A stretch of DNA of 64,000 nt from a virus. The stretch covers positions 96,043 through 160,042 of the IMG/VR virus record IMGVR_UViG_3300009082_000017; one strand, given 5' to 3'. Made by a program: the position numbers and the translations under genes. How positions within the stretch are numbered: the first letter of the stretch is position 1; each line of letters begins with the position of its first letter. The notes below the pieces were generated by a model. It saw only the letters and a list, made by a program, of their open reading frames with translations. It did no database searches and was not told the DNA's origin. Shown piece after piece: positions 107 to 59,082 of the stretch.

Positions 107-313
107 ATGGAAGTATCTTTTTATGGCATACATGGAAACTCTGGTATGATTGGATTTTCTTTAAATTGGGAAGATCCAAAATTTGGGTTTGGGCAAATTG
201 AGATCAATCAAGGTAATGCAGATGGGAAGATTTTTATTGATTCAGAATCAATGTCGCCAGAATTTGTAAAATCGGTATTGTGTGCGTTGGTTGATAATAG
301 CACCATGAAATAG
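107..313 (+). CDS. hypothetical phage protein
   Basis: AGGAG RBS; ends ...STMK* inside site 304. Confidence 0.75.
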   Translation: MEVSFYGIHGNSGMIGFSLNWEDPKFGFGQIEINQGNADGKIFIDSESMSPEFVKSVLCALVDNSTMK

Positions 314-339
314 CATTTTCATGTGGTTAAAAAGGAGTA

Positions 340-738
340 ATGATGATAGATTTTTGGGATAGCGATTATATAAAAAAATCAAGAAAAGATCATGTGTGTG
401 AATTTTGCCATGGTAAAATCTTGCAAAGTAGTTCGTGTTATCATGAACATGGCAAATATGACGGAGAATTTCAAGATTATTATTTATGTGAAAGATGCAG
501 AGAATTGATTGATAGCCGAGATGAAAGATGGGAATGGTATGATTCTGGAGAGCTTGGAGAATTTCATGAATTATTTATAGATGGCGGTTATATTAAATGC
601 CCCAAATGTGGATCTAATAATTATGATGAAATAGACTATTCTGGAGATGCGCTGTCTTGCACAATTTCTTGTGATAACTGTGAAAACGAATATAAATTAA
701 ATTTATCAGCAGAAAATCTTTTGGGACAAAACAAATGA
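340..738 (+). CDS. zinc-finger hypothetical protein
   Basis: Four CxxC pairs; RBS AAGGAG. Confidence 0.75.
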   Translation: MMIDFWDSDYIKKSRKDHVCEFCHGKILQSSSCYHEHGKYDGEFQDYYLCERCRELIDSRDERWEWYDSGELGEFHELFIDGGYIKCPKCGSNNYDEIDYSGDALSCTISCDNCENEYKLNLSAENLLGQNK

Positions 739-995
739 ACATAAATGAATCTTTTGGTAAAGAGTTTGATGCTTTATCTGTTGAAAGCAATCAATTAATG
801 ACTTACGTGACAGAGATTAGAAATAAAATTAATGATATTCCTCAGATAACAGACTTAAATGTTTGTTTAGAATTAGAAAAAGAATATGGTAATCTTGGAG
901 AATATACTAGGCTTTTAGGAGATACGTTTTTCAAATTATCACAAATGTATCATTATGTTAGACTAGTGAACAAAGTTGCTTTGGACGAACAATAA
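735..995 (+). CDS. hypothetical protein
   Basis: ATGA overlap with upstream gene. Confidence 0.65.
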   Translation: MNINESFGKEFDALSVESNQLMTYVTEIRNKINDIPQITDLNVCLELEKEYGNLGEYTRLLGDTFFKLSQMYHYVRLVNKVALDEQ

Positions 996-996
996 T

Positions 997-1320
997 ATGA
1001 AAATAAATAGACAACAAGTTTTAGATAAATATAACGGTCATTGCGCTTATTGCGGATGTGGAATAACACTAAAGACAATGCAAGTAGATCATAAAAAGTC
1101 AAAAGCATATGGTGGAACAGACGAATACCAAAATCTTATGCCATCATGTAGATTGTGTAATCATTATAAACGAGCCAATAACTTAGAAACGTTTCGAAGA
1201 TATATTATAGAAATGTATAAAAAATTATCAAAGGTTTATATTTTCAGAGTAGCCGAGAAATATGGAATGTTTGTATGGAAAGATTGGGATGGAAAGTTTT
1301 ATTTTGAGAGATTGCCATGA
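997..1320 (+). CDS. HNH endonuclease (zinc-binding)
   Basis: CAYCG...VDH...N...CRLCN motif; ATG at 997 preferred to ORF-track 976. Confidence 0.85.
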   Translation: MKINRQQVLDKYNGHCAYCGCGITLKTMQVDHKKSKAYGGTDEYQNLMPSCRLCNHYKRANNLETFRRYIIEMYKKLSKVYIFRVAEKYGMFVWKDWDGKFYFERLP

Positions 1321-4992: not shown

Positions 4993-5217
4993 ATGTTAAC
5001 AAATATTGTAGGAGACATACATAGACATATGGCATATTTCGGAACAGTTCCGAAATTAGTAATTGGCAAATTTACTTTAGAGACCATAAGAAAAGAATTT
5101 GGCAACTTAATTATTGATGCTGATTTAGATAATCAAAGAGGACAAACTATTGCCGGATGTGAATTTGAAGAAGCCGATTTTTGGTGGGGATATTATTTGA
5201 AAAAGTTTATATCATGA
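4993..5217 (+). CDS. hypothetical protein, single gene between sites 4955 and 5213
   Basis: AAGGAG RBS; stop TGA lies in the left arm of the site. Confidence 0.75.
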   Translation: MLTNIVGDIHRHMAYFGTVPKLVIGKFTLETIRKEFGNLIIDADLDNQRGQTIAGCEFEEADFWWGYYLKKFIS

Positions 5218-5251
5218 AACTTGTATTTCATTAGGGAAGAAAGGATAATTT

Positions 5252-5446
5252 ATGATAGATGCGATTATTGCGATTGTAGTAGGATTGTTGCTTTTATATT
5301 TTGGCATATCATCAATAATATTGTTTATAAAAAATGTTAATAAAAATGATGGAATATGGATTATAGCGAGTGCATTAATTTGTTCCATTGGATTATTTTT
5401 ATTTGGTGGTGGAATTTTACAAATAATAAAAATTATTTTACCATGA
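5252..5446 (+). CDS. two-helix membrane protein, single gene between sites 5213 and 5442
   Basis: Two hydrophobic segments; stop in site. Confidence 0.75.
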   Translation: MIDAIIAIVVGLLLLYFGISSIILFIKNVNKNDGIWIIASALICSIGLFLFGGGILQIIKIILP

Positions 5447-5507
5447 AACTAGAATTTCATGGTGTATTACAAATAAGATAATATTAGTATAGTGTAAGGA
5501 GATAAAT

Positions 5508-6542
5508 TTGGGAATAAACGTACTTTCATGTTTTGATGGAATTTCTGCCGGTCAATTGGCATTACAAAGAGCAGGAATTAAAGTAGACAATTATTTTGCA
5601 TCAGAAATTGACAAATATGCAATTCAAATTACACAGAAGAATTTTCCTAATACTATTCAACTAGGAAGTATTAATGATTATAAAGACTGGGATTTGCCTA
5701 AAATTGATTTGGTTATTGGCGGTAGTCCATGTCAAGGCTTTAGCAATGCAGGGAAAGGATTAAATTTTGAAGACCCAAGAAGCAAATTGTTTTTCACATT
5801 TTCTGATATTATCAAATATTATAACCCTAAATATTTTTTGTTAGAAAATGTAAAAATGAAAAAAGAATGGCAAGATGTTATTAGTGAATATATGGGTGTT
5901 GGCCCTATTGAAATTAATTCATCTTTAGTTTCTGCTCAAAATAGAAAACGCTTATACTGGACAAATATTAATTCTGTTGAAGTCCCCTTGGATAAAAATA
6001 TTTATATTGCAGATATTGCCGAAGAAGATGCAGAGCCTATCATATTACATAATTTATATGGTGGTTTTGGAGAATCAAAACCAAGAGTTTTTACAGAAAA
6101 ATCTCCAACAATAAGAACTGCAAGTGGTAGAGGTCATATTCCAAGCGTTGTTCGTAAAGATATTTATTGGAAAGACGTTCAGGAAACTGATGCCAAAGAT
6201 GTTTTTTATTATACTGATAAATCATTTAATTGGATAAATAAGTCAGAAGAACGAAAAGCAAAATTTAAGATTTATGATAAAAATACTGAAGAAAAAATGC
6301 AAATGGTTGAGGCATCACATTATAAATTGTATAGTAATCAACGTTGTTTTGGCATAAGAGATAAAGGTGGAATTAGGTATATTTCAAATATTGAATGTGA
6401 AAGATTACAAACGTTTCCAGATAATTATACGGAAGGCGTATCCAAAACTCAACGATACAAAGCAATTGGTAATTCCTGGACGGTAGATGTAATTGCTCAT
6501 ATTTTTTCATATTTGCCTGAAAACTGGAAAGTCACCACATAA
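5508..6542 (+). CDS. dcm: DNA (cytosine-5)-methyltransferase
   Basis: SCFDGI, GGSPCQ, LENV, QNRKR, ERLQTFP, IGNSW motifs. Confidence 0.95.
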   Translation: MGINVLSCFDGISAGQLALQRAGIKVDNYFASEIDKYAIQITQKNFPNTIQLGSINDYKDWDLPKIDLVIGGSPCQGFSNAGKGLNFEDPRSKLFFTFSDIIKYYNPKYFLLENVKMKKEWQDVISEYMGVGPIEINSSLVSAQNRKRLYWTNINSVEVPLDKNIYIADIAEEDAEPIILHNLYGGFGESKPRVFTEKSPTIRTASGRGHIPSVVRKDIYWKDVQETDAKDVFYYTDKSFNWINKSEERKAKFKIYDKNTEEKMQMVEASHYKLYSNQRCFGIRDKGGIRYISNIECERLQTFPDNYTEGVSKTQRYKAIGNSWTVDVIAHIFSYLPENWKVTT

Positions 6543-6579
6543 AAGTGTCATTTCATTGGAAATTGATATTGATTTACTC

Positions 6580-6608
6580 TTGACAGATTTATAAAACTGT
6601 GTTATAAA
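6580..6608 (+). promoter_or_regulatory. sigma70-type promoter
   Basis: TTGACA-17-TATAAA, extended TG. Confidence 0.8.
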
Positions 6609-6631: not shown

Positions 6632-7147
6632 ATGGCCTATAGTAATCCTAATAATATTATTACAAAAGGAAAAGAATTGTCTCATTCATCAGAGAATAAA
6701 ATTGAAGCTATTAATGCTCTTGAAAAAGCATTAAGCACATTAAATGAAACAATAAGAAGTGCTTGTGATCTTGGTATTTTCCCAAAAGTGGAAGTTAGGC
6801 AACAGATGTCCTTTTATGAATCTAATCCCGATTCTATTATGGGAATTATTCATTATCTTTCAGCAGATTCCGTATTTTTAGAATATTTAGAAATGTATGA
6901 TAATGCTCAAGGTTTAGTTGGTATGGCACTTCCTCATGGCGAAACCGCAAAGCATAGACTTTCAATATATGAAAGCTCATATAATGAAAGAAAAGAATTT
7001 TTAGAAAAATCTGAATTAGAAGATAAAAAAGATCAATTATTAAAGTTGGAAGATTGGTGGACAAATACAAAAGATACTTTTGAATCCAGAATGGAAAAAA
7101 CAGAAAAAGATATTATTAAAGAGTCTTGTGTAGAAGTTACCCCATGA
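6632..7147 (+). CDS. hypothetical protein, single gene between sites 6538 and 7143
   Basis: AAGGAG RBS; ends VTP* in site. Confidence 0.8.
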   Translation: MAYSNPNNIITKGKELSHSSENKIEAINALEKALSTLNETIRSACDLGIFPKVEVRQQMSFYESNPDSIMGIIHYLSADSVFLEYLEMYDNAQGLVGMALPHGETAKHRLSIYESSYNERKEFLEKSELEDKKDQLLKLEDWWTNTKDTFESRMEKTEKDIIKESCVEVTP

Positions 7148-7394: not shown

Positions 7395-8258
7395 ATGGTG
7401 CTAAACACCATAGAAAGGATAAATCTATTGAAAGAATTACAACCGGCAATCAAATGGTCAGGAAGTAAACGTCCTATTGCAAAAGAAATTGTAGAATCAT
7501 TTCCAGATAATATTGAAACATATTATGAACCTTTTTGTGGCGGATGTTCTGTACTGTATTATTTATTGAATAGCAATAAACTTGGTGCAAAACGATATGT
7601 TTGTTCAGATATCAATAATGATTTAATAGATTTGTGGAATACAATTAAATCTAATCCAAGTCAAGTTATTAATAATTATTCGAGAATGTGGAATGAGTTA
7701 CAAGTTTTAAGTATTGCAGATCGCAGACAATATTTCTACGATGTTCGAAGTAGATTCAATAAAGAAAAATCACCTTATGACTTTATGTTTATTATGAGAA
7801 CTACAACCAATGGTATGCCTAGATATAATAAATTAGGAGAATTTAATAATTCTTTTCATATTACAAGAGATGGTATTAATCCAAAAGAATTTACAACTAC
7901 GATTGATAAATGGTCTAGTTTATTAAATAATTATGAAGTAGAATTTGTTTGTCAAGATTATATTAATATTGTTTCAGATAGCGAAGATGTGATTTATTTA
8001 GACCCGCCTTATGCTGGGACAAAAGGAATGTATTATGGAGTAATTGATTATAATAAATTATGGGAATGGGTGAAGATTCAAAAAGGATTTGTCGCACTAA
8101 GTTTTGATGGAAGAACCACAAGCACAGAATATTCTGATTTAGTTCCAAAGGATATTTTTAGTAATCATAAATTGATTTGTTCTGGTAATTCTTCATTCAG
8201 AAGGACTATCGGAAAATCAAGATCAGAGTATGTTTATGAAAGTTTATATACCCAATGA
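7395..8258 (+). CDS. Dam-like (D12 class) DNA adenine methyltransferase
   Basis: KWSGSK, YYEPFCGGCSV, YLDPPY; true start probably TTG near 7428 after AAAGGA. Confidence 0.92.
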   Translation: MVLNTIERINLLKELQPAIKWSGSKRPIAKEIVESFPDNIETYYEPFCGGCSVLYYLLNSNKLGAKRYVCSDINNDLIDLWNTIKSNPSQVINNYSRMWNELQVLSIADRRQYFYDVRSRFNKEKSPYDFMFIMRTTTNGMPRYNKLGEFNNSFHITRDGINPKEFTTTIDKWSSLLNNYEVEFVCQDYINIVSDSEDVIYLDPPYAGTKGMYYGVIDYNKLWEWVKIQKGFVALSFDGRTTSTEYSDLVPKDIFSNHKLICSGNSSFRRTIGKSRSEYVYESLYTQ

Positions 8259-8270
8259 AAGAACTATTTC

Positions 8271-8474
8271 ATGGAGAATAAACATTTGAAAACTAAAAAT
8301 TTGGTATATTATTTATTTGGGGCAAATGATCTAGTTTCTTTATGGAAGTTGTTTCTTGCCACTATCTCAATAAAATATTTTTTGCCTAATAGACGATCCA
8401 AAAAAATGTTAAGAGAAAAGATAAAATATCTTAAAATATTAGAAAACATAAATAAGGAGAATAAAAATGAGTAA
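8271..8474 (+). CDS. hypothetical protein
   Basis: ORF track; first ATG is in the right arm of site 8254, true start may be the TTG just downstream. Confidence 0.5.
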   Translation: MENKHLKTKNLVYYLFGANDLVSLWKLFLATISIKYFLPNRRSKKMLREKIKYLKILENINKENKNE

Positions 8475-9978: not shown

Positions 9979-10094
9979 ATATAATTCAACGGAAAATTGT
10001 GAATGGCATATGATTATATATCCAAGTGTAGGATAATTACTTCATGAAATATAACCTTCATGGAAACTAGTTCAAAATTGGTATCAATTTACCC

Positions 10095-10123
10095 TTGACA
10101 AAAATCAAATTATGTGATAGACT
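10095..10123 (+). promoter_or_regulatory. sigma70-type promoter
   Basis: TTGACA-17-TAGACT, extended TG. Confidence 0.8.
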
Positions 10124-10127
10124 TGTA

Positions 10128-10330
10128 TAGTCTTGGTACGCGGATATACTTTTGGAGATGAAGGAGATGGGGTCGCGGTTGGGATTGCTGGGCGACTAAC
10201 CAAAAGAAATTTAGCATAAGATAGAAGCAAAATAAAGTGTATGAATATGCTTCAAAAAATCTTGGTGAGATTAATTATATAATAATATGTATAAGATTCC
10301 TAGAAATAAACTCACAAAATACTAGGATTA
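10128..10330 (+). ncRNA. candidate structured ncRNA or leader
   Basis: No ORF-track gene here; begins at predicted TSS; terminal stem TAGTCTTGGTA/TACTAGGATTA; internal GGTCGC/GCGACT, GAAGCA/TGCTTC, GTGAG/CTCAC. Confidence 0.45.
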
Positions 10331-20218: not shown

Positions 20219-21037
20219 ATGTCAAAAGTCTATGACGTTCAAACAGTCTTTAATGAAATTGATACATGGATGCTCCGTTTCGAGGTCTTGAATGATTCAG
20301 TAGATTATTTTGTAGTTAACGAGGCACCGTTAACTTTTAGTGGCAAACCTAAACCTTTATATTTCTGGGAGAATCGTGATAAGTTTGCAAAATTTTCAAA
20401 CAAAATTATCTACAATGTTTTTGACGAAGAAAAACAAGGTTGGGATCAATGGGATAGGGATAGAGAACATAAAAATGGAGCGATGAAAGCTCTTGAAGGT
20501 GTCGCCAATGATGAAGATATAATTTTCTATTCCGATGCTGACGAAATCTGGAACCCTTCCAATATCAATTTTGATAATTTTAAAGATGACACTTTATATA
20601 TTCTATACCAATCGGTATATTATTACTATCTAAATTGCCTTTGGGAAAATACTGTAGACCCAACTGCCATTTGGAGAGGGAGCCGTTATAGCTCCTATGG
20701 TTTATTAAAAAATCATTCTTTTGATGCTTTTAGAGCATACGATGGGTATTTCTTCCAGAATCAATTATTTAAAAAAGAATATATTAATAAAGGTGGTTGG
20801 CACTTTTCATTCTTAGGAGGCGCTGAGAATATTAAATATAAAATAGATTCTTACGGCCATCAAGAACTTAATGTACCTGTTATTAATGATAATGTTCAAA
20901 ATAATATTGATGCTTTACGAGATCCATTTTTCAGACCAAATTTCAGAATTAGTCCCATTGATATAACTTTAGAGACTCATCCTAAATATTTAGTTGATCA
21001 TTTAAATGAATATAGTAAATATATTTATAAAAGTTAA
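20219..21037 (+). CDS. GT17-family glycosyltransferase
   Basis: FNE.D, VDYFVV.E, TFSGKPK, SDADEI, GGWHFS. Confidence 0.85.
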   Translation: MSKVYDVQTVFNEIDTWMLRFEVLNDSVDYFVVNEAPLTFSGKPKPLYFWENRDKFAKFSNKIIYNVFDEEKQGWDQWDRDREHKNGAMKALEGVANDEDIIFYSDADEIWNPSNINFDNFKDDTLYILYQSVYYYYLNCLWENTVDPTAIWRGSRYSSYGLLKNHSFDAFRAYDGYFFQNQLFKKEYINKGGWHFSFLGGAENIKYKIDSYGHQELNVPVINDNVQNNIDALRDPFFRPNFRISPIDITLETHPKYLVDHLNEYSKYIYKS

Positions 21038-21050
21038 TTTGTTTTAACCC

Positions 21051-21079
21051 TTGACAGATTTTAGTTTATGTGTTATAGT
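21051..21079 (+). promoter_or_regulatory. sigma70-type promoter
   Basis: TTGACA-17-TATAGT, extended TG. Confidence 0.8.
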
Positions 21080-21109
21080 AATAGAAATATATTGGGTTAG
21101 GAGGATAAG

Positions 21110-21745
21110 GTGAAATTAGACCAAATTTTTGAATTAGGATATTTAATCAATTTAAAAGAAAGAGTTGATCGTTGGGAATTATGCGATCATGAGTTCTATA
21201 AAATCAATTATTATCCACAACGATTTGAAGCAATTAAAAATGAAGTAGGTAGAGTTGGATGCTTTCTTAGTCATTTAGAAATATTAAAAAAAGCACAAAG
21301 AGAAAATAAAAATGTTTTAATAATGGAGGATGATGTAGAGTTTGATGAAGATTGCAGACAAGTATTGGAAGCGTCTCTAGACGAACTTTGTGATTTAAAT
21401 TTTGATATGGCTTATTTCGGTGGGAATATTCTCCGTCCATTTTTCCAAGTCACAAAACATTGGGCAAGATTAAGCCATTGCCAATCAACCCATTGTTATA
21501 GTATTCATCGAAATTTTTTATCAACAATTATAAATTTTCTTGAAAATAATTCTACTCAAAAAACAGGATTGGCAATTGATCAATTATATGCAGACTATCT
21601 TATTCCTAATTGTAAAGCTTATATTATTATGCCCATAATCGCAAGACAACGTTCGGATTTTTCAACTATTGAAAATAGAGAAGTAACTTATGATTTGCCG
21701 GTTAAAAGATATTGGCATTATTTGGTGAAAAATGAAAAAGTGTAA
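21110..21745 (+). CDS. GT25-family glycosyltransferase
   Basis: INL..R.DR, RFEA, GCFLSH, LIMEDD. Confidence 0.88.
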   Translation: MKLDQIFELGYLINLKERVDRWELCDHEFYKINYYPQRFEAIKNEVGRVGCFLSHLEILKKAQRENKNVLIMEDDVEFDEDCRQVLEASLDELCDLNFDMAYFGGNILRPFFQVTKHWARLSHCQSTHCYSIHRNFLSTIINFLENNSTQKTGLAIDQLYADYLIPNCKAYIIMPIIARQRSDFSTIENREVTYDLPVKRYWHYLVKNEKV

Positions 21746-22577
21746 AACAATTATATTCTCTCGCAATCGTCCTCTTCAATTAACCTTATGCCTTAAAACA
21801 TTATTAAATCATTGTACGGACATTTTACAACAATCAAACATTACAGTTTTATACAGAAATGATGAGGAATATCGGCAGTCTTTTGACAATTTAATGTTGG
21901 AATTTCCCCAAATATCGTTCAAAAAGGAGGAAAATTTCAAAAAAGACCTGCTTTCTTTGCTACCACATGAAAGCAACATTTCATGGGGTAAAAATGAAGG
22001 TTTTGTCACTTTTGTTGTCGATGATCAGATTTTCACCGAAGATTTTTCAATGAAAGAAGTTATTTCAACACTTGTTGAAAATCAGGATTGTATAGGGTTT
22101 AGTTTACGTCTTGGCAAAAATTGTGTACGATGTTTCCCTTATGATTGTGAGCAAGCAATTCCAAAGACAGAAAAAGTTTCAAAGAATGTTGTAAAATATA
22201 ATTGGCAAGAAGCAGAGTATGACTTCAATTATTGTTTAGAGTTATCTGCAAGCGTTTACAGGGTAAACGACCTTATAGAGATGTTTGAGATTTGCGATTA
22301 TGACTCACCCAACCACCTCGAATCAATTATGAGTTCGTGTTTTTATAAGGACAAACCAAACCTTTTAATGTTTGAAAAATCGGCATCCTTCAGTTATCCG
22401 ATGAATAAGGTTCAAACATCACACCCAAATAGGAGTGGAGATTTCAATCCTGACACTCTTAGATTAATTTATGAAAAGGGTGGAAGATTTGAAAATAAGC
22501 AATTTGATGGTTATATTAGTAATGGAGCACATGAGATTCCAGAAAGTATAAATTTGGTGGACACATATGGCAAATGA
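21732..22577 (+). CDS. GT-A fold glycosyltransferase-like protein
   Basis: IIFSRNRPLQL, FVVDD, FSLRLG, PN.LE. Confidence 0.7.
   Translation: MKKCKTIIFSRNRPLQLTLCLKTLLNHCTDILQQSNITVLYRNDEEYRQSFDNLMLEFPQISFKKEENFKKDLLSLLPHESNISWGKNEGFVTFVVDDQIFTEDFSMKEVISTLVENQDCIGFSLRLGKNCVRCFPYDCEQAIPKTEKVSKNVVKYNWQEAEYDFNYCLELSASVYRVNDLIEMFEICDYDSPNHLESIMSSCFYKDKPNLLMFEKSASFSYPMNKVQTSHPNRSGDFNPDTLRLIYEKGGRFENKQFDGYISNGAHEIPESINLVDTYGK
21966..21985. repeat. perfect 7-6-7 site inside a CDS
   Basis: CATGAAA-GCAACA-TTTCATG, read as PHESNISWG. Confidence 0.85.
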
Positions 22578-26035: not shown

Positions 26036-27211
26036 TTGAATTTCAAAAGGAAGGAGGAATACATTATATATAAAACGATTTTTGTTCCAGTGAAATGCAA
26101 TAAAAAAGATTTTGAATACATAAAAACTTTAAATAAAATTTCTGCAAATGTGTGGAATTATTGTGTTGAAATAGACAAAGAAAATGGTCAAAAATTAACT
26201 TTATCGCAATTAGAATTTATGACTAAAAATAAATTTCCATTACATGCAAAAGGAATACATCATATTGTTTTTAAATATTTGAATGCAAGGAAGTCAATGT
26301 GGGAAGTTATTAAAAAGAATAAAGACAATGGAAATAAAATAACCTTACCATATAGATTAAAAGAATATATGCCCACTGGTTGGGATTCACAGGCAATACA
26401 TCCAGAATATGACAATAATAAAATTAGGCTTACTTGCATTTTGGGTAGAGGACAAATTGTTTGCAAAGTTAAATCAATACCCAACAATATCGCAGAGATT
26501 GAATTGGTCTATAAAGACGAATATTATTTATCTATCAAATATAAAGAAGAAAATGATACAAATTTAATTCAATCGGATAATATTGCTAGTATTGACCTTG
26601 GAGAAATTCATGCAATTACAAGCATTGACAAATTTGGGAATTGTGTTATAGTTACTAATAGAAAGATTCGTAGTTTAATTAGATTAAAAGATAAAAGACA
26701 AGGCGAATTACAATCTTTAAGATCAAAATGCGTCAAAGGAAGCAAACAATCTAAAAAATATACAAAAGCAATTTATGATATTAAATATGAGTTTGATAAC
26801 AAAATTTTGGATGCGCTTCACAAACAAACAAATTTATACGTCAAATGGTGTAGAAGTCATAAAATTTCGAAAGTTTATTATGGAGATTTAGATACCACTA
26901 CTAGAAACAGCAAAGGCAAGAAAAGTCAAAAAATAAATCATAAATTAAGTATGTGGAGATTTGGTATATTAATTAAACAACTTCAATATAAACTTTTTCA
27001 ATATGGTATTGTAATGGAAGAAATAAGTGAAGCATATACAAGCCAAACTTGCCCAAATTGTGGCAATAGAAAAAAGACGGGAAGTAGAAACTATTCTTGT
27101 AAGTGTGGATACATTCAACACAGAGATATTGTAGGTGCAATAAATATATTGAATTTTAATACAGATACTGATTTAAAAATGTATAAAAACAAGGTATATC
27201 TACAAATCTAG
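26036..27211 (+). mobile_element. tnpB: TnpB RNA-guided nuclease (IS605/IS1341-like), no TnpA
   Basis: SIDLG, YYGDL with downstream SEAYTS, CPNC...CKC zinc finger, HRDIVGA. Confidence 0.9.
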
Positions 27212-27359
27212 AAATAGTGAGTAGTAGAAGTTGACGTTATCAACCTAGTTTAAAGACTGGTGGTTTCTTATTAGAAAAAATTTGGCTATTGCCAAAAATA
27301 ACGGAAGTGTTCTTTTGTTACATAACAAATAAAAAGTAGCAAATATATTATTTGCTCAA
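27212..27359 (+). ncRNA. putative omega-RNA / IS right end of TnpB-2
   Basis: Hairpins TTTGTTA/TAACAAA (27314-27329) and AGCAAATA/TATTTGCT (27338-27356), ending in TCAA (27356-27359), typical of IS200/IS605 right ends. Confidence 0.6.
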
Positions 27360-27377
27360 ATTATTTAAGGAGAAAAT

Positions 27378-29579: not shown

Positions 29580-29604
29580 TATCTTATAGAAAAGGAGGCA
29601 TCAC

Positions 29605-30555: not shown

Positions 30556-30564
30556 GAGAATAAC

Positions 30565-36050: not shown

Positions 36051-36090
36051 ATTATTAGTAATATTAATAAAATTGGTATCACTAAAACCC

Positions 36091-36119
36091 TTGACAAATT
36101 TGGGTTTGTGTGGTAGACT
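36091..36119 (+). promoter_or_regulatory. sigma70-type promoter upstream of tRNA
   Basis: TTGACA-17-TAGACT, extended TG. Confidence 0.8.
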
Positions 36120-36189
36120 TAGGTAGCATTGACGAAGGCATAGCTTATCGTCATTAAAGTTTACGGCATCTTGCCAAAAATGCCGAATC

Positions 36190-36263
36190 GTACCCTTAGC
36201 TCAGTTGGTTAGAGCAAGCGGCTCATAACCGCTGGGTCACAGGTTCAAGTCCTGTAGGGTACA
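36190..36263 (+). tRNA. tRNA with CAT anticodon, most likely tRNA-Ile2 (lysidine type); CCA not encoded
   Basis: Cloverleaf: GTACCCT/AGGGTAC, GCTC/GAGC, AGCGG-CTCATAA-CCGCT, ACAGG-TTCAAGT-CCTGT. C4 and C5 in acceptor stem (TilS determinants); no initiator features. Confidence 0.93.
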
Positions 36264-36314
36264 CTAGGGCAATGAGGCAACCTATTTCTTTTATTTCACA
36301 GGAGGTAAATTATT

Positions 36315-36689
36315 ATGTTCCCAACTACTTTTTTCGAAACACTTTCTTTTGATCCACGAGCCTACAGGTTCCATCGTCCAATGCTAGAACGAGAAGGTTA
36401 TTTTACTATTGAAAAAGATGGTAAAATTCTTGTTCTTTTGAATGTATTGGGTGTAGCAAAGGATGACATTTCTGTTGATGTTAAAAACACGTCAGAAAAC
36501 AAAGAATTAATTGTTATTAATGGTACAACAAAAAACGAGGATTTTGATAAAGAATTTAGCATCAATATGTCATTCCTTGTAGGAAAACCCATGGAAACCC
36601 TTGAATGGGATATGGAAAATGGTTTTATGACTATGACTCTTACTTTCAAAGAGCCAGTAAAACCATCAGTCAAGATTATTAGCAAGTAA
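36315..36689 (+). CDS. Hsp20/alpha-crystallin small heat-shock protein
   Basis: V.GV.KDDI.V.V...I.I.G and ENGF pattern; GGAGGT RBS. Confidence 0.75.
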   Translation: MFPTTFFETLSFDPRAYRFHRPMLEREGYFTIEKDGKILVLLNVLGVAKDDISVDVKNTSENKELIVINGTTKNEDFDKEFSINMSFLVGKPMETLEWDMENGFMTMTLTFKEPVKPSVKIISK

Positions 36690-36896
36690 ATTTCTTTCGT
36701 CTCATTGCCCTATTTGGTATCATTATTATAGAATCTAATTAAGGAGGTGAACCATCTACACAACCCAATGAAAGTGTTATTTCATGGTAATTTTAAAAGG
36801 AGTTATATAATATAAAATAAATAAAAAAATAAAAATAAAAAATCTAAAATAAAAATCAAAAAATAAAATTATATAAAAGAAAAGGAAAAAATAAAA

Positions 36897-37949
36897 ATGG
36901 CAAAAACTAAAGGATTAGAACTTCCGCAGCAACGTGGGAATTTTGAGATTAAGGGTATCGTTACTGGCGTATCTAAGGAAAATTTCTATAAGGAAACAAA
37001 GACAAAGACAGGTAAGGATTTTCGTGCCTTGAATTTCGGTGTTACATTTGACAAAAATCAAACATTATTCGTTACTCTTACTGGTATGCCCATGGATAAT
37101 GTTTATTTCTCCAAACGCGGAGAAAAGGGTGAAAAGCCCACCACTATGCCGGTGCCTTGGAAAGATCGTCGCACCTTCAAGAAAGAAGGATTCTCTCTTA
37201 TTGGTGTGAATTGTGGTTTGAAGAAAACCACAAATGACAAAGGTACAGAAGTTAATGATATTCAACATTTAACTCCTTTTGATGCGTGCCAGTATATTTC
37301 TGAAAATCTTCAAGATGGTGTTTCAGTTTATATTCGTGGAAATATTGAATTTTCACATTATGCAAATAAAGAGGGTGAATTACAACATAATTCAAAGTTG
37401 GTTATTACTCAAATCTCATTATGCAAGCCTGTAGATTTCGAAGCGACTGATTTCAAACCTGACGCTCAATTCACTCAACCTTTTGTGTTTATGGGGGTTC
37501 GTAAGGAAGATTCAGTTTTTGTAGCAGAAGGCAAAGTTGTGAATTATGCTACTGTTGAAGATGCAGAATTTATTATCGAAAATGAAAAAATTGCAACCAA
37601 TTTCAAGAAAAATGTCAAGCCATACACTGCTATGAAAACATGGGGCGATATTCGCACTGTAAAAAATACTGAAGTTGTTGAAGAAACTACTTCAGATGAT
37701 GGTTGGGGCGAAAAGAATGCCATGGATCGTGTAACTGGTCAATATCGCAAAACGCTTATTATTATGGGTGCAGACAAAGAGTCTCTTGATCGTGAAACAT
37801 ATACCGAGGCATTACTAGATAAGGCTATTGAAACTATGGCTGCTAACGAAAATGCTAAGAAAGATTTTGGAGAAGGAGAAGAAGATTGGGGCGGAGATAG
37901 CAAGATTAGTGGTGAAAAGAAAGAAGATGATGACGAGGCTTGGAGCTAG
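36897..37949 (+). CDS. putative ssDNA-binding protein (SPbeta YorF-like position)
   Basis: Beta-rich, acidic C-terminal tail ending DDDEAWS; first gene of replication block. Confidence 0.6.
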   Translation: MAKTKGLELPQQRGNFEIKGIVTGVSKENFYKETKTKTGKDFRALNFGVTFDKNQTLFVTLTGMPMDNVYFSKRGEKGEKPTTMPVPWKDRRTFKKEGFSLIGVNCGLKKTTNDKGTEVNDIQHLTPFDACQYISENLQDGVSVYIRGNIEFSHYANKEGELQHNSKLVITQISLCKPVDFEATDFKPDAQFTQPFVFMGVRKEDSVFVAEGKVVNYATVEDAEFIIENEKIATNFKKNVKPYTAMKTWGDIRTVKNTEVVEETTSDDGWGEKNAMDRVTGQYRKTLIIMGADKESLDRETYTEALLDKAIETMAANENAKKDFGEGEEDWGGDSKISGEKKEDDDEAWS

Positions 37950-41487: not shown

Positions 41488-42236
41488 ATGACAAATAAAA
41501 TACCTCATAATTTTAAAGATTTAACTGGAATGACTTTTGGAAATTTAACTGTTATAAGAGAAAATGGTAGAGATAAAAATAAAGGAGTTATTTGGGAATG
41601 TCAATGTTCTTGTGAAAATAAAACAATAGAAAATATAAGAAGTTCATATTTGATACGAGGAAAGACAATTGGTTGCAAGGATTGTATGAAAAAACATGTG
41701 GCGAAATTAATTGGTGACGCACATAAAAAATATAATAAATATAATTTATCTGGCGAATATGGAATAGGATATGTGGACGATGGTAGAGAATTTTATTTTG
41801 ATAAAGAAGATTTTCATTTAATAGAAAAACATTATTGGAATATAGATCCTCATGGATATACATATACCAATAATCCCGATAGTAAAAATGGATATTTACA
41901 TCAAATAATACTAAATATTCCAAAAGGTTTTGTTGCAGATCATATAAATAGAAATAAATTAGATAATAGAAAAAATAATCTACGTATTTGTAAGAATGGA
42001 GACAACGCAAAAATTCAAATTTATCTAAAAATAATAAATCTGGGATAATTGGAATTTCTTGGGATTTAAAAAATAACAAATGGACATCTCGGATTACCAT
42101 AAATAGAAAAGGAATTAATCTTGGAAGATTTGATGACTTTGAAGAAGCAATTAAGGCAAGACTAAAGGCAGAAAAATTTTATTTTGGCGAATTCGCCCCA
42201 CAACAACATTTGTACGAGCAATATGGTATAATATAA
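41488..42236 (+). pseudogene. HNH-AP2 homing endonuclease, frameshifted
   Basis: Frame breaks at A5 run 42009-42013; the alternative frame continues NSNLSKNNKSGIIG...AIKARLKAE...QQHLYEQYGII* (stop 42236), matching two intact paralogs. Confidence 0.88.
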
Positions 42237-50578: not shown

Positions 50579-50579
50579 A

Positions 50580-51314
50580 TTGTCTTTAATAGATTTGACT
50601 GGAAAAAGATTTGGAATGTTGGTAGTTCTTCATAGGACTGAAAGACCAGAAGGGGTAAAAACTGGAACATTTTGGTTGTGTCAATGTGATTGTAAAAGTG
50701 ATCCGGTGGCCGTAAGAGCAGGAAATATAAAAAAACAACATTCTTGTGGGTGTTATAGAAATTTAATGGCTTCTACGCGACAAAAGAAATATAATGAATA
50801 TAATTTGTCTGGAGAATACGGAATAGGTTATACCCTAAAAGGTGAAGAATTTTATTTTGATTTAGAAGATTATGATAAAATCAAAGACTATTGTTGGTAT
50901 ATGCATCAAGATAATTATTTATCAACAAATATTCCAGGATATTATCATCCAAGATTAGAAGTATTAATGCACAGAATGATTCTCGGATTAGAAGATCCAT
51001 CTATTCAAGTTGATCATATTGATAGACACAGAAATGATAATAGAAAATTTAATTTAAGAATCGCTTCTCCTAAACAAAATTCTAGAAACAGAACTAGACC
51101 AAGTAATAATTCTAGCGGAGTAATGGGAGTTTGTTGGTCTGATAGAAGTGGAAAATATAGAGCATATATAACATATAATCATAGATGGATTACTTTAGGA
51201 GAATTTGGTGATATGGAAGATGCAATAAAAGCTAGATTAAAAGCTGAGTTGGAATATTTTGGATTAGAATTTTCTTCACAACGTCATCTATTTAAAGAAT
51301 ACGGAATAATTTAG
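50580..51314 (+). CDS. HNH-AP2 homing endonuclease
   Basis: DLTGKRFG, WLCQCDC, SCGC, HR...VDH...N...N, AP2 C-terminus. Confidence 0.9.
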   Translation: MSLIDLTGKRFGMLVVLHRTERPEGVKTGTFWLCQCDCKSDPVAVRAGNIKKQHSCGCYRNLMASTRQKKYNEYNLSGEYGIGYTLKGEEFYFDLEDYDKIKDYCWYMHQDNYLSTNIPGYYHPRLEVLMHRMILGLEDPSIQVDHIDRHRNDNRKFNLRIASPKQNSRNRTRPSNNSSGVMGVCWSDRSGKYRAYITYNHRWITLGEFGDMEDAIKARLKAELEYFGLEFSSQRHLFKEYGII

Positions 51315-51694: not shown

Positions 51695-54600
51695 ATGAAA
51701 TTGTCAGAATTAATAAAAGAAAATATAAAAGAAAATTTCAATAAAATAGTAAATAGCGATAATATTGAAGAATATGTAAAACATTTAAGTCATGAGTTTA
51801 TTTCCAATTATACTTTGGATGAACTCTCAGAAATGTTCACAGCTTCAATTTATAATAAAAAAATTAATCAGTTTTTAATGAAATGAAGTTTTCATGGGGT
51901 TGAGAAAGGATAATTATGTTTACACAAAAAATGTATAAAGCCTTACGTCGAGATAATCAAGGAAAAGAAAACATTATTACAGATCTATTAAATGAAATTG
52001 ATAGACTAAATAAAGAATTGCACCCAATATGTAATTGTGAAAGATGCACTGGAATAAAAGATTATTATTTAGAAAGCGAAGATGATAATCCCAGTTTTTC
52101 AATGCATTAAATATATTACCATGAAATAAATGTTTCATGGACTAGAAAGGTAAAAATGGAAAGACATCATGTGTATTGTACTTGCTGCATTTATGGAAAT
52201 AAATTAATAAATAGTCTTTATAAAAAAGATAGACCAGACGACCCTATTGAAGCGTCTCCCCTGATTTGTAGAAATTGTTATCCTTGGAATTTAGAAGATA
52301 GCAGATCCTCAGATTTGAGAAAAAATTATAAAGAATCTTTGTCTGGATGGTGGTGGCTTACAAAACAAGAAATAAAAGATTGGTTTATGTATACACTTTA
52401 CAAAATTTGTAAAATACAAAAAGGAAAAGAATGAACGCAATAATTACGGTAAAATTTAAATTATTAAATTTATGCAACCCTGAAGATTTAGAAAGTATGG
52501 GGATGACTTTTGAAGAAATGGTTAGAAACCTAATTTCAGAAGAGGGTATTTTTGGTTTAGTAGAAGATGGTGGAGAAATTATTAGCGTTGAATCAATTGA
52601 GTCTATTTAAGAAAGGTGATATATGATAACTGAAGAAAACTACACGGTTTGCCGAAGAAAAGAAAATTCCGTAGAAATAAAAGATTTCGAAAACTTTGAA
52701 GACGCTTATAATCATTTTAAAAAAGATAAAGATAAATATTTATCAGGGTATATTGAACATTCATACAAAGTTACAGAAACATTTTTTGATTTTAATAAAA
52801 CAAAATATCCTCCACGAGATCAAGTGGAAGATATGGTAAATAATACATAGGAGAAAATGATCAATGAGAAACAAGAAAATAAGCCTGAAATATAAAGGGA
52901 TGCAACATTTAGTAAAAGATTTGGATTATTTAGTAGAATTAGGATTTGCAGAATTTGTCCCAGATCCAAAAACCGGCGAGTATGGGTATAGATTTAAAGA
53001 GGATGGGGTTAAATTGTTGGCTAACATGAACCAGGAAGAAAAAATTTCCCAATGAAATTGAAGTTTCATGGGGATTTGGGTATTGACAAGATAAAGAAAG
53101 TATGATATAAATAATCTAGGAGATTATAAAAATGGAAGATAAATCAACTGTCAAACTTAGAACTGAGAAATTGAATATTATTGATGCTAATGAAAAATAT
53201 AGAAAAGAAAATTATACAGACGTTACATTAAAAGATATTTCTATTATTATGCATAGAGCTTGTGGACAAGGAGTGATTCATAATTTAGCATATGAATTAT
53301 CTAATATTTTGCAAATAGATTCCGAATCTATGTTGTATGCTTTAGATGTTGTTCGAGACAAATATATAAATATTAGCAATCAAGATGCCTTAAATATGTT
53401 TTTTGGTAGTAAAGAACATTTCCCCGCTTGGTGTTTTCATTCGGATATTGAAAGGAAAAAACTAGTTTTACAAAGACGATTAGAACGCTTGAATGAAATG
53501 GAGATTTTATGAAAAATCCAATTATATATTATGGTGACGACGGTTGTTTATGGCTTTGTTTTCGAAATGAAAACAAGCAAATTAATTTATGTTTAGAAAA
53601 TGAAGGCATAGAATCTAGTTGGAATTATGTTGGCAAAAATCCAACAGAAGCAGAATGTTATACTTTAGATTCTCATCTTGCCGAAAGACTACGAGAGTTT
53701 TATGAGGATTATAGAGAAACGGAAGAAGGATAAAAATGCAAAAACTTTTTATGATTCGAGACATTGTTACTGGTGAATATTTCGATGATGATTACAATGA
53801 ATGGGGTGATTACGAAAACGCTAGTCTTTATGAAAAGATTGGCGAACAATACTACTCTGGAGCAACAGGCGAAATGGAATTGCCAGAAGATTCAGAATGG
53901 GTAGAATATGTTCTTCCCCATGAAAGCGCAATTTTATTGGATCAAGATGAAAAAATTTAGAGGCGTATTTGCCGAAGACAGAAATTGGTTTACTGACTTA
54001 ATTTATAATTTATTTGGTGGTCTTGTAAATAGATTATTATTTAAATTACCTTATTCTGAAACAGGACGAAAAATTATGATTTGGTTTGTTCAACATGATC
54101 CAGAAGAATATTCGGGTAGCTAAAGGAGATAAAATGAATATAAAAAGAAAACTAAGTTATGCCCATAATATAAAAATATTTGATAAAAATAACCCAAATA
54201 TCAAAATATTAAATACAGATGAATCCATAATTACATTGTTTAAAAACAACGATGTTCCCATTGAATATTGCGAAACACCTGAAAAGAATGAAGTCATCGG
54301 TTTTATTTCAAAAGTTGGTGAATTTATTGGAAGTGAATTGTTTGGAGACGTTACTTTTTGGGGAGAAAACTATTCTACATACGAACTTAAAAATTATTGT
54401 GTAGAAGTTGATTTTGAAGAAGCTGGAGAAGGTGAGTGTTGGGTTAGCAGAATTGTTTGTGTAGAATTCCAACCACATAAAACTATTATTTCATGAGGTA
54501 AAACAATGGAAACATTTAAAGACCAACAAGGCAGTATTTTTTATGCTTCTGACAGAGATGACTTAATACAAATAATTCAGAAATTATTAATTTATATATC

Positions 54601-55023
54601 TGATGTTTGTGAAAGCTATGGTAATGAATATGAGGCACTAGAAAAAGAAATCATAAAATTAGGAATACCATTGCCTAATAAAACGACCATTTCATTAGAG
54701 GAGTAAAAATGAGAGAATATACAGCAGTCAAAGTAGATAAATTAGTAGAGGCAAAAGTTACTTGCAATAAATGTGGCATGATTTATGATAATGAAACATT
54801 TGATCCAGAAATGCCACAAGGATATGAAGAATGGCAATGGGACACCATTCATGCTTTTAAAGTAGATTTTGGGTATGGCTCTTCCCATGATATGGAAAGA
54901 TGGAAATTTGATTTGTGTGAAAATTGCATTGAAGAATTAGTGGATTCATTTAAAATTAAAGCACAAAAACTTGGTACCGATCCATTTGGTGAAGAATTAT
55001 CTATTCAAGAAAATAATCAATAA
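51695..55023 (+). CDS. tract of about 14 small hypothetical proteins
   Basis: ORFs at 51695, 51916, 52156, 52431, 52623, 52864, 53132, 53509, 53736, ~53947, ~54134, 54506, 54709, most with RBS. Confidence 0.7.
53083..53111 (+). promoter_or_regulatory. sigma70-type promoter
   Basis: TTGACA-17-TATAAA, extended TG. Confidence 0.8.
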
Positions 55024-55048
55024 AACATATATTCCATGGAGGTAAATA

Positions 55049-55822: not shown

Positions 55823-55904
55823 AAACATATATCAAAAATAATAACTATTTTTAAGATTTACCCCATGAAATGCAAATTTCATTGATTTAATCGAAAGGAG
55901 GATA

Positions 55905-58294
55905 ATGACCACACCAAAAGAAGCATTAGAATTCTCCAAAGAAAAAGCAACAACCGAATTATTACAATTTATAGTTTCTGCTTCCAAAGGATATGAATAC
56001 GTTAATAAACAAAAACTAAGAGAAATTATAGATTGGATAACTTTGGCATCTTGTTTAGAAGGCCAAGTTATGATAAGCGAAAACCTACCTAAAAAAGAAT
56101 AGAGGCATACTATGGCACGAGGGATTCACAGCAATACCCACATTACCAAATTGTTTTACATCCTTAGAAGAAAAGGAATATCTGATGGATTAAAACATTA
56201 TTGTGTACTTGAATTACGTCACTGGCAGGAAATAACCACAGATGAAGCTTATAAATATTTAGGATTAGATTATAATAACCTAGAAGAACAATTTAATAAT
56301 ATTACAAAATCAAAGGAGAAATAATAAAAATGACAGACGAAGGAAAGAAATTACAGCAAGAACAAATCCAAAGAAGTTATGATTTATTGAAAGAGGAAGG
56401 CGTTGTAACGAGTAAAGATTCTGCGTTATATTGGATTTTTGAAATTGCACAAAATTATGATACTGCTGAAACAATTGGAGAACATCGCGCGGTAATTGAT
56501 GAGCTTGCAGCATATGCATTACTTGGGAAAGAATGTGTTGAATAAAACTAATTTTACCAGAAACCTTGACAAATTTACATTTCTGTGGTAAACTTATTTT
56601 ATAATTATAGGAGCGCACATTGGGCAATATATGTTTTTATTGCAATAAAGAAATTACTGAAAAAGACACATGTTGGTTTGAACCAATAGATGGGTCTTAC
56701 CCCACAAAATATGGTAATATCCCTTTTCATAAAGAAAAATGTTATCGAACTATAAAAGATATTTTCCAATATTTAGAAGAAAATAAAGAAAGAGTTTTTG
56801 ATTTTATTGCAAATGGATCTAAACAAATTGTAGAAAATAAGGCAAAACAAATAAAAGAAACTATTGAAGAACAACCTAAAACAAAAGAAAATAAAATCAA
56901 AAAAACTAAAAAAATTAAAACTAAAAAAACTAAAAGGAAATAGTAAAATGGGAAAATACGATGTAAAAATAACCAACCAATTAAAAGAAGGTGATAAAGT
57001 AAAAATTGATATTGAAAAATATCGTTGGCAAAGAGAACAAGGATCTCTCACTGATACTTTTTGGCAATTTTTGGAAGACAATAAAGAAACTATTTTTACA
57101 CTTTTCGCAAGAAATAAATATGGAATTATGTGGGGAATAGAAGAGGATACAAGATGGTCTTTATATGGTGATTTTTTGATTAAGATTGACTAATGGAGAT
57201 TAATATGGCATACTGGGTGTATTGGACAATATTTTCTGTATTAGCTTTTTGTGTGGCTGGGATTATTATTAAGTTTTTGTGGGATATTTTACAAGAACTT
57301 AAATTCTTAAATAAAAATCCCAAAGAAGGCAATTGTCCTCATGGGTATAGTGATTGGGATGCGTGTCAAGTTTGTAGTTCTGAAAAGAAATACTTTTAAT
57401 TACAATAAGAAATTAATTTCATGGAATGAGTGAGGATAAGATGTGACATTTTCTAATTCTGGAGCCATATGTTCTGCAAGTTATATAAGTTGGGGCGATA
57501 CTTGGCTTAATTACGATCATACTATTGTTTCTAGAAAAGAATAAAAAGAAAAACATTTCTGTGAATATTGCGGATCATATAGTGAGTCAGTTTATAGAGA
57601 AGGAACTTGTGGCGCATGTGGCGCTCCATTTGGGAAATCACAACATAAGACAAAGACTTATCCTGATCGTTCTTGTGGATGGGTATATGCACCATAAAAC
57701 GATAATTTCATGGGAATAAAATAGAAAGGATAAATAAAAATGCATGTAAATCTTATTTATAAAGAAAACGATTTTCAAACATTAGCAGAATTATTCTTGA
57801 AACATAGAACTGTTAATGAATTCATTGAAGAAGCTATACATAGTCCAATTAGATCATTTGATGGGAGTAATAGAATTGATATGAATACTGCTATTACTGT
57901 GTGGCAGTCGTTTAAGGCGTTGGAGAATGTTATGGATAAGGTTGAAGCGTAATGAGAGATTATCCTTTTTATGTTTATTTGCACACAAATGGCGAATTAA
58001 TTACCAAGAACCCTTGGGTTGTAGATTCTATGGGCGCTAGTGAATATTTTGATAGCAGTTTTGTTGTAAAATATTGGCTTGTTAAAAACGACGAAGAACT
58101 TGAAGGCGTAAAAAAACAAGCTGTTAAATTAATAAAATGAATATTTCACTAGGAGAAAAATGATTAAATTATTAAAACAATTATTTTGTGCTTTAATTTA
58201 TGCTCACGATTTTGAAAAATATTCTGGTAGTGAATATGCAAAATGTGAAAGATGCGGATATATCACATCAGTATATTATAGAGAAAATGTTTAA
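55905..58294 (+). CDS. tract of small hypothetical proteins
   Basis: ORFs at 55905, 56112, 56330, 56620, ~56948, 57193, 57740, 57952, 58160. Confidence 0.65.
56566..56594 (+). promoter_or_regulatory. sigma70-type promoter
   Basis: TTGACA-17-TAAACT, extended TG. Confidence 0.8.
57443..57697 (+). pseudogene. zinc-ribbon gene with premature stop, between sites 57404 and 57693
   Basis: GTG 57443; in-frame TAA 57542-57544; continues CEYCG...CGACGAP...YAP* with stop in the site arm. Confidence 0.6.
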
Positions 58295-58322
58295 TAAAAT
58301 AGATAATTCATGGAGATAGAAT

Positions 58323-59000
58323 TTGTATAAAATATACAATCAAGATAATACAAAAGTCTGTAGTTTACCAAAAGTAGATTTAGTATATGCAGATATGATC
58401 TATGAAAATGAAGACCTTTCATGGATTTATGATTTTTTCGATTTGCTTAAACCTAATGGAATTTTTATCGTTCAAACAGATTTTCATACAAATTATTTAG
58501 TGAGAGATGCCCTTGAGAATATACGTCAAGCAACATTTGTAAACCATTTGGTTCAAAAGAATGAATGGGGAAACCACCCAAAAAATAAATTTCATCAATG
58601 CTATGACGACATTATAGTTTTCTGCAATGGTAAAGATTGGAAATTTTATCCAGAAAGAATTCAAGTAGACAAGGTTACAAAAAATAAAGGATTAAATCCT
58701 TCAGGTAGACAAACCAAACAAGCAACAGCATGGATAGACGATATTTGTCTAACTACAACATCAAAAGAAAGAATCAAAAAAGAAGATGGGCATTTAATTA
58801 GATGGCAGAAGCCCTTAAGATTATTTGATAGGATTGTTGCGCCTTTTACTGACGAAAAAGATTTAATATTTGATCCGTTTATGGGTAGTGGTAGTTTGGG
58901 CGAATGGTCAATCAAAAATAATAGAAATTATATTGGTATAGAATACGATGAGGTTGTTTTCGGATTAGCGAAACAAAGATTAGATAAGCTTACCCAATGA
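58323..59000 (+). CDS. N4/N6 DNA methyltransferase (beta class)
   Basis: DLVYADMIY (motif IV variant), WQKP, DPFMGSGS, YIGIE. Confidence 0.88.
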   Translation: MYKIYNQDNTKVCSLPKVDLVYADMIYENEDLSWIYDFFDLLKPNGIFIVQTDFHTNYLVRDALENIRQATFVNHLVQKNEWGNHPKNKFHQCYDDIIVFCNGKDWKFYPERIQVDKVTKNKGLNPSGRQTKQATAWIDDICLTTTSKERIKKEDGHLIRWQKPLRLFDRIVAPFTDEKDLIFDPFMGSGSLGEWSIKNNRNYIGIEYDEVVFGLAKQRLDKLTQ

Positions 59001-59082
59001 AAATCACTTTCATGCGAACATCAAATTCTCGTAAACTATACGATTAACACGAATTACAAAATTACAAAGAAGGGAGGTTCCC

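Follow-up and report, generated by a model that had tools for sequence, protein, structure and literature searches.

Genes of a large phage end on a repeated palindromic DNA site that may serve as a joint for exchanging accessory genes

A short palindromic DNA site recurs at the gene junctions of a large phage genome, and unrelated genes end on it in all three reading frames. The stretch analyzed here (the window, 64,000 nt) comprises bases 96043 to 160042 of a 160,042-bp IMG/VR phage record (IMGVR_UViG_3300009082_000017, hereafter G000; 31.8% G+C) from a metagenome of freshwater sediment; all window coordinates count from window base 1. The overlap between gene ends and site is confirmed as real: it is statistically strong, and it stands under any DNA-level role of the site. 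Stops are packed onto the site, the constraint lies on the DNA, protein homology ends at the arm of the site, site centers are conserved between related phages with swapped neighbors, and cassette homology ends inside sites. The explanation that we consider probable is that the site is a double-stranded DNA recombination joint (crossover) resembling the pdif modules of plasmids, at which related phages swap accessory-gene cassettes and onto which gene ends have been compacted.

The site has the consensus [C/A]AT[G/A]AAA-N6-TTT[C/T]AT[G/T], that is, two inverted copies of the half-site [C/A]AT[G/A]AAA. Scanning G000 for CATGAAA-N6-TTTCATG with at most two mismatches found 92 copies with a center of exactly 6 nt, compared with 3.4 in first-order Markov shuffles. 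A 6-nt center is present in 92 of the 108 matches, and centers of 5 or 7 nt occur at chance level. In about half of the copies the flanks lengthen the arms to ACCCCATGAAA and TTTCATGGGGT, giving an 11-6-11 layout; two inverted arms of about 11 bp around a 6-bp central region are also the architecture of a Xer/dif core site. The site thus measures 20 nt, or 28 with flanks, and about 100 copies lie at gene junctions of this genome. Two sites lie in frame inside longer open reading frames (ORFs), at 21966-21985 (ORF 21732-22577) and 60452-60471 (ORF 60386-60628), and both keep an identical center in the related record G003.

A search for the exact 7-6-7 pattern across IMG/VR returned mainly lone chance matches, and the only site-rich records were G003 (143 kb, collinear with G000 but circularly permuted), G006 (38.5 kb), and G007 (55.8 kb). 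In positions 1 to 50000 of phage SPBc2, the annotated stem-loops are mostly ordinary terminators, and just 5 TAAAA-N6-TTTTA sites are found. Pooling G000 with the three related records gives 226 sites, 224 of which were oriented for the pairing analysis. For each site, we took the last coding-strand ORF of 45 or more codons and counted its stop position from the first arm base. Such a stop falls between -10 and about +50 at 173 of the 226 sites, and genes meet the site in the following ways.

Stop is the TGA or TAA of the left arm (+2): 54 sites
Stop is a TAA formed with the first two bases of the arm (-1): 8 sites
Stop inside the center (+7 or +10): 15 sites
Gene reads through the site (+18 to +52): 22 sites
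Stop 5 to 10 nt upstream, abutting the 11-nt arm or overlapping it by 1 to 2 bases: 73 sites
Site inside a long gene: 5 sites

Gene frames relative to the site are near-uniform (80, 56, and 52; p = 0.026), and what differs between frames is how genes behave at the site. Of the 80 genes in the frame of the arm stop, 63 reach into the arm, and of the 108 in the other two frames, 36 reach into the site (odds ratio 7.4, p = 7e-10). The arm leaves its mark on both codons and residues. TGA is the stop codon of 27 of 42 arm-ending genes (64%) versus 105 of 615 others (17%; p 1e-10), the last residue is P, Q, S, or T in 36 of 42 (86%) versus 97 of 615 (16%; p 3e-21), and T stands in the penultimate position in 23 of 42 versus 30 of 615. 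On the downstream side, most next genes begin 15 to 28 nt past the right arm. In 18 junctions, drawn from all four records, the right-arm ATG is itself the first start codon of the next ORF. The center of 9 of these 18 is Shine-Dalgarno-like (GGAGAA, TGGAGA, CGAGGA, and similar; odds ratio 13.9, p = 6e-6), suggesting that the site center would there double as a ribosome-binding site.

An earlier note on this DNA had listed genes that end inside the site in three frames, and all 21 of its coordinates read back correctly, with the caveat that the entry at 1316 is a left half-site and that those at 33209, 54677, 55019, and 58996 fall below the scan threshold. Left-arm stops (+2) follow P at 1320, 5446, 7147, 27596, and 35618; Q at 8258, 32897, 33213, 53055, 55023, and 59000; S at 5217, 28597, and 35400; and T at 6542. 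The stop is the first center codon after MK at 313, 31195, and 51886, and read-through tails end in PHKTIIS (54496), PNKTTISLEE (54706), and AILLDQDEKI (53960). The present analysis adds the frame statistics, the site-coded C termini, the mirror image at start codons, and homolog tests. The sites and gene ends of the window are listed below, with the last residues before each stop codon.

304-323: site CATGAAA-TAGCAT-TTTCATG; ORF 107-313 ends in TMK, its TAG being the first center codon
1316-1322: left half-site only (CCATGAAA); HNH ORF 976-1320 ends in LP on its TGA, and tnpB 1357-2556 comes next
2580-2599: degenerate site CATAAAT-TGATAC-TTTTATG, directly past the tnpB stop; this site and the half-site at 1316 enclose the tnpB unit
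5213-5232: site; ORF 4993-5217 ends in IS on the arm TGA
5442-5461: site; ORF 5252-5446 ends in LP on the arm TGA
6538-6557: site with arm variant CATAAAA; C5 DNA methyltransferase 5508-6542 ends in WKV then TT, on the arm TAA
7143-7162: site with center GATTTG (common to G003 position 4); ORF 6632-7147 ends in TP
8254-8273: site; Dam methyltransferase 7395-8258 ends in ESLY then TQ, on the arm TGA, and the right-arm ATG at 8271 is the first start of ORF 8271-8474
27592-27611: site with center CGACTG; ORF 27378-27596 ends in TP on TAA
28593-28612: site; ORF 28253-28597 ends in NS on the arm TGA
31186-31205: site; ORF 30917-31195 ends in TMK, with TAG in the center
32893-32912: site; ORF 32634-32897 ends in FQ on the arm TGA
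33209-33228: degenerate site (3 mismatches); ORF 32938-33213 ends in FQ on TAA
35396-35415: site; ORF 35197-35400 ends in TS on TAA
35614-35633: site; ORF 35448-35618 ends in TP on TGA
51877-51896: site with center TGAAGT; ORF 51695-51886 ends in LMK, with TGA in the center
53051-53070: site; ORF 52864-53055 ends in SQ, and its G003 ortholog at the same address ends in TP
53492-53511: site with Shine-Dalgarno-like center TGGAGA; ORF 53132-53512 reads through to a TGA at +18, and the right-arm ATG at 53509 starts ORF 53509-53733
53919-53938: site read through by ORF 53736-53960 (PHESAILLDQDEKI before the stop; tail AILLDQDEKI)
54476-54495: site read through by ORF 54086-54496 (EFQ then PHKTIIS), where relatives have EFQPKPLLESVPNEI
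54677-54696: degenerate site (3 mismatches) read through by ORF 54506-54706 (PNKTTISLEE)
55019-55038: degenerate site (3 mismatches); ORF 54709-55023 ends in NQ on TAA
58996-59014: site with a 5-nt center; N4/N6 DNA methyltransferase 58323-59000 ends in DKL then TQ

Comparison with homologs shows what the arm contributes to these proteins. In four of them conservation stops where the 11-nt arm begins, and the final residues differ in homologs from outside the clade, as the test proposed in the earlier note foresaw. For the Dam methyltransferase, 81 of 120 homologs end exactly two residues past the conserved ESLY, as it does here. Their usual last two residues are IK or IS, and those of the present protein and its closest relatives are TQ or TT, encoded as ACC-CAA-TGA, i.e., by the arm. 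Three Dam homologs on unrelated viral contigs, with no site downstream, end in ESLYIKSNIK, ESLYKNYE, and ESLYMKEIGNAQN. Separately, the N terminus of the Dam ORF is about 12 codons longer than in all 119 homologs (window 7395-7430), and the true start probably lies near 7431. The C5 methyltransferase ends in LPENWKV followed by TT, and the most similar tail among its homologs is LPEDWKV. The N4/N6 methyltransferase ends in RLDKL followed by TQ, 2 to 4 residues past the last conserved helix, as homologs do.

The earlier note had offered two accounts of these junctions, namely, that gene ends were joined to the site during capture or that they were compacted against an indispensable site. Joining at arbitrary points is not what the three methyltransferases suggest, given that all have complete domains and that Dam ends at the usual homolog position. 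No conserved domain is truncated in any of the three, and the arm replaces the stop and at most two variable codons. Intact enzymes with so little rewritten favor gene ends having been compacted onto the site over their having been fused to it at random, with the junction then inherited with the gene. Indeed, paralogs of the N4/N6 methyltransferase (40 to 56% identity) at four addresses in three records all end in TP on the arm stop, suggesting that the gene-arm junction is old and travels with the gene. A native tail replaced by the site is seen in one case, the 136-amino-acid protein 54086-54496, which ends in VCVEFQ followed by PHKTIIS where five relatives go on to EFQPKPLLESVPNEI, so that 8 native residues are lost to the site. 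As protein sequences, the ends of these relatives (PNEI, PNKI, and PNETTIS) read like a same-frame site. In this case, then, the junction has shifted and a native tail has been lost.

The earlier note had also placed the constraint on the DNA and not on the protein, which agrees with what we find: an identical sequence is read in all three frames or is intergenic, with frames near-uniform, and at addresses shared between G000 and G003 with unrelated upstream genes the frames agree in 11 of 30 cases, about the one in three expected by chance. A DNA sequence could still act through its transcript. The site could be a hairpin at the 3' end of early messages, serving as a terminator, processing signal, or stabilizer, with the overlap arising from compactness and recombination being a short-homology by-product of the kind proposed for promoter early stem-loops (PeSLs) of T4-type phages. 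The sites do lie at the 3' ends of genes in the sense of transcription, just ahead of the next Shine-Dalgarno sequence; the consensus is able to fold into an 11-bp stem; and PeSLs pair a stem-loop with cassette shuffling (PMC2839356).

The variation within the arms does not bear this out. At arm position 4 the 224 oriented sites have 128 G-C pairs, 58 A.C mismatches (26%), and 35 G.U pairs, with 0 compensatory A-T pairs against 9 expected under independence, so that mismatches in mid-stem are commoner than G.U and compensatory change is seen in none. At position 1 there are 85 C-G, 62 A.G, 56 C.T, and 9 A-T combinations, with 21 A-T expected, and the pair is broken in 58% of sites. A full 11-bp stem is possible in just 5 of 224. 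Arm variants are mirror-symmetric between strands and never compensatory, which makes an RNA hairpin unlikely; conservation lies in sequence rather than structure. Further, no T-run follows the site, where the downstream consensus is G/A-rich; a terminator scan of 27000-37000 called no site; Rfam on the window matched only a tRNA and a group I intron and gave no match for the site; and, in contrast to PeSLs, no promoter lies inside it. On the noncompensatory variation and the missing T-run, the hairpin or terminator reading was rejected, and we regard it as unlikely overall. The variation has the pattern left by a dimeric protein that recognizes a pair of half-sites in double-stranded DNA.

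Comparison of related phages points from protein binding toward recombination. Between G000 and G003, 42 centers are identical and collinear, compared with about 0.2 expected (92 x 88 pairs within the collinearity window). Ungapped identity at these shared sites is near 1 over 20 nt, 0.5 to 0.7 for the next 5 to 10 bases on each side, and about 0.3, the background level, beyond that. The segments between shared centers vary in length (e.g., 553 versus 2144 nt and 856 versus 196 nt), and 14 of the 36 segments compared have no tblastx match. Since frame agreement at shared addresses is at chance, the same site ends different genes in different frames. With center CGACTG the stop is at +2 in G000 and an unrelated gene in G003 reads through to +30, and with centers TGGAGA and CTATTA the stop is at +18 in G000 and at +2 in G003.

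Individual cassettes show where homology breaks. A 670-bp cassette at 64755-65445 of G000 is 92% identical to 124966-125657 of G003, with homology running from the right arm of the upstream site to the left arm of the downstream site and unrelated outer flanks; the flanking centers differ (CATCTA/TTTCCA versus GAACGA/CATCTA). At window position 51877, homology to G003 starts inside the site and stops at the left arm of the next site, whose center differs, and at 74852 of G000 homology ends with the right arm. In aligned cassettes a TAACAG word follows the right arm ahead of the Shine-Dalgarno sequence (G000 64780-64790 and 65470-65480, outside the window).

The window encodes a candidate enzyme for these sites.

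29605-30555, plus strand: Xer-like tyrosine recombinase of 316 amino acids, with the catalytic residues R, HxxR, H, and Y present and no arm-binding domain

Xer-family tyrosine recombinases have the catalytic set R-K-HxxR-H/W-Y. The protein of the window is closest to the XerA, XerC, and XerD models, yet it scores below every curated cutoff, and on the integron-integrase model it reaches 40.8 bits against a cutoff of 265. Orthologs occupy the same map position in G003 (76% identity) and G006 (49%). Cultured phages gave distant matches only (24 to 30% identity), and a close-pattern search of IMG/VR returned G003 only. The two arms form one palindromic sequence and so imply a single recombinase; nor do they confer an orientation. 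We infer that recombination at the site is catalyzed and that this recombinase may be the catalyst.

Conserved half-sites around a free center are typical of dimeric DNA binders, and a protein with the fold of a tyrosine recombinase may act solely as a repressor (PMC10516654). The site might accordingly be bound by a non-recombining protein, a repressor or genome organizer, as MrpR, a recombinase-fold protein of phage SPbeta, binds the SPbeta repeated element (SPBRE), with the overlap due to compaction alone. SPBRE is, however, a promoter operator of about 10 copies (PMC10516654), whereas the present site has about 100 copies at the 3' ends of genes. The recombinase of the window keeps its catalytic residues and has no PDB match to MrpR at E<=0.001. 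Moreover, binding alone leaves unexplained both the identical collinear centers with both flanks replaced and the cassette homology that ends inside sites. A repressor of the MrpR/SPBRE type was set aside on the copy number and promoter location of SPBRE and on the retained catalytic residues, and we judge binding without recombination to be quite unlikely, a little more so than the RNA hairpin.

Transposable elements suggest a further origin. In a third alternative, the sites are targets or by-products of tnpB (IS605-type) elements and spread with them, and gene ends came to meet them by insertion beside stops. The tnpB gene at 1357-2556 lies between the left half-site at 1316-1322 and the degenerate full site at 2580-2599. 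REP (repetitive extragenic palindromic) and IS200-IS605 hairpins are imperfect and are mobilized by a Y1 transposase (TnpA/RAYT). Few tnpB copies stand against about 100 sites, though, and site position and center are stable between relatives. Only tnpB genes and no Y1 transposase appear among the scanned proteins, in a genome that was not searched for Y1 specifically. The data fit tnpB exploiting the sites, not creating them, and an origin from tnpB elements seems very improbable. The unit at 1316-2599 looks as if it had been placed between the left arm and the center of one junction, the upstream HNH gene 976-1320 ending on the orphan arm.

Several observations weigh against a recombination joint of the kind proposed here. 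All 92 centers of G000 differ, and as only about 1 to 3 duplicates are expected, their uniqueness is not significant alone. The ends of blastn high-scoring segment pairs (HSPs) between G000 and G003 fall within 10 nt of a site in 6 of 132 cases versus 3.6 expected; without overall enrichment this comparison lends the joint no general support, as divergence mostly decides where HSPs end. Nine homologous cassettes sit between different centers, which a recombinase bound to identical centers would not readily allow, so that tolerance of unlike centers or another route is needed. The breakpoint of one cassette lies at the outer edge of an arm and not in the center. Short-homology recombination, as proposed for PeSLs (PMC2839356), could also yield such a breakpoint and could be the mechanism of exchange. 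Finally, the co-occurrence of recombinase and site rests on three related records. Exchange between identical centers fits the 42 collinear shared centers with swapped neighbors and fits less readily the nine cassettes between unlike centers.

Taken as a recombination joint, the site would work as follows. Related phages would exchange accessory cassettes at an element of two inverted arms of 7 to 11 nt around a free 6-nt center, with the Xer-like recombinase 29605-30555 as candidate catalyst. A gene arriving in the frame ACC-C(C/A)A-TGA would use the TGA or TAA of the arm and so come to end in a T-P or T-Q that the site encodes. In either of the remaining frames, genes would mostly place their stop codon against the arm and, less often, stop in the center or carry a short site-coded read-through tail. 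Downstream, a Shine-Dalgarno sequence would follow directly past the right arm, or in some junctions the center would provide it and the right-arm ATG would be the start. A site needed at nearly every accessory junction of a tightly packed genome would thereby press gene ends against it from both sides. As a more speculative extension, offered tentatively, large SPbeta-like phages may possess a pdif-like exchange system with one Xer-like recombinase and about 100 palindromic 11-6-11 joints whose 6-nt centers act as addresses, so that coding, translation, and recombination signals are overprinted on 28 bp.

The remainder of the window provides the setting. The first 50 kb or so of G000 has its genes on the minus strand, and past that point they lie on the plus strand. 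The window proteins include DnaE, RecD-like and RecJ-like replication proteins, and sugar-modification enzymes; two tnpB genes, several HNH endonucleases, three DNA methyltransferases, and one tyrosine recombinase are also encoded. A second repeat family, AAATTG..TTTACCCTTGACA-N17-TA(G/A)ACT, resembles sigma-70 promoters with a conserved upstream block and could represent operator-bearing early promoters, with a role comparable to that of SPBRE in SPbeta. These and other features of the window are as follows.

6560-6590: second (promoter-like) repeat family
10075-10135: second repeat family
21026-21081: second repeat family
29547-29591: second repeat family
36066-36131: second repeat family
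56541-56606: second repeat family
36190-36263, plus strand: tRNA gene (Rfam, 70.8 bits), with a strong promoter-like repeat upstream of it at 36087-36131
41488-42048, 50580-51314, and 61148-61879: three paralogous ORFs (repeat families D1, D7, and D10), interspersed with replication genes and probably homing-endonuclease-like
63171-63455, plus strand: group I intron (Rfam RF00028, 81.5 bits, full model), just before or within ORF 63463-63999, which runs off the window end

Should the sites be recombination joints, phages of this group would carry their own means of swapping accessory genes in register. Among the accessory genes here are at least four for orphan DNA methyltransferases, probably with an anti-restriction role. 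That stops and starts overlap the site shows how much more strongly it is conserved than protein ends are, and it carries a warning for annotation, as DNA and not protein function sets the final residues of these proteins. Site-coded T-P or T-Q ends together with an excess of TGA provide a signature for finding such systems.

Among known systems, the integron is the one to which the earlier note had turned. An integron cassette carries its recombination site at the 3' end, often overlapping the stop codon; with this precedent for gene ends on a recombination-type site, the present overlap is only moderately surprising. The attC site is an imperfect palindrome of 57 to 141 bp with R''-L''...L'-R' boxes, a GTTRRRY core in R', and extrahelical bases, and its folded bottom-strand structure is conserved while its sequence varies. 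As an analogy of function the comparison stands: single-gene cassettes lie in one orientation, with a site at the cassette 3' end and a tyrosine recombinase gene present. As family membership it fails, the site differing on all three attC features examined. It measures 20 to 28 bp, with no GTTRRRY and no attI or Pc platform; its arm sequence is conserved, not its structure, and variants are not compensatory; and the recombinase has no significant IntI match, scoring best on Xer models, with sites spread over >100 kb and not in a single array.

PeSLs are elements of about 100 bp that combine a sigma-70 promoter with a G+C-rich terminator hairpin and act by homologous recombination (PMC2839356, PMC4122927). 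They too are repeated intergenic elements among the small accessory genes of large phages, reaching from the upstream stop to the next Shine-Dalgarno sequence and marking cassette shuffling. The present site differs in being 20 to 28 bp long, in lacking a promoter and conserved pairing, and in having a copy-specific center. No -35/-10 pair occurs inside it, and the promoter-like repeats (ACCCTTGACA...) stand apart from it, in some 6 places of the window.

The closest described system is that of the pdif/dif modules of Acinetobacter Rep_3 plasmids, where XerC/XerD sites of 11-6-11 layout occur many times per replicon and bound accessory modules (PMC13141974, PMC6449649), and where related plasmids differ by modules exchanged at sites that share a 6-bp spacer (PMC13141974). 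In the phage the two arms are one palindromic sequence, unrelated to that of pdif, and about 100 sites lie on a phage genome rather than a plasmid. The site also incorporates gene stops and some starts, and recombination is suggested by sequence comparison. What the two systems have in common is the 11-6-11 architecture, the many copies per replicon, and probably the logic of the spacer.

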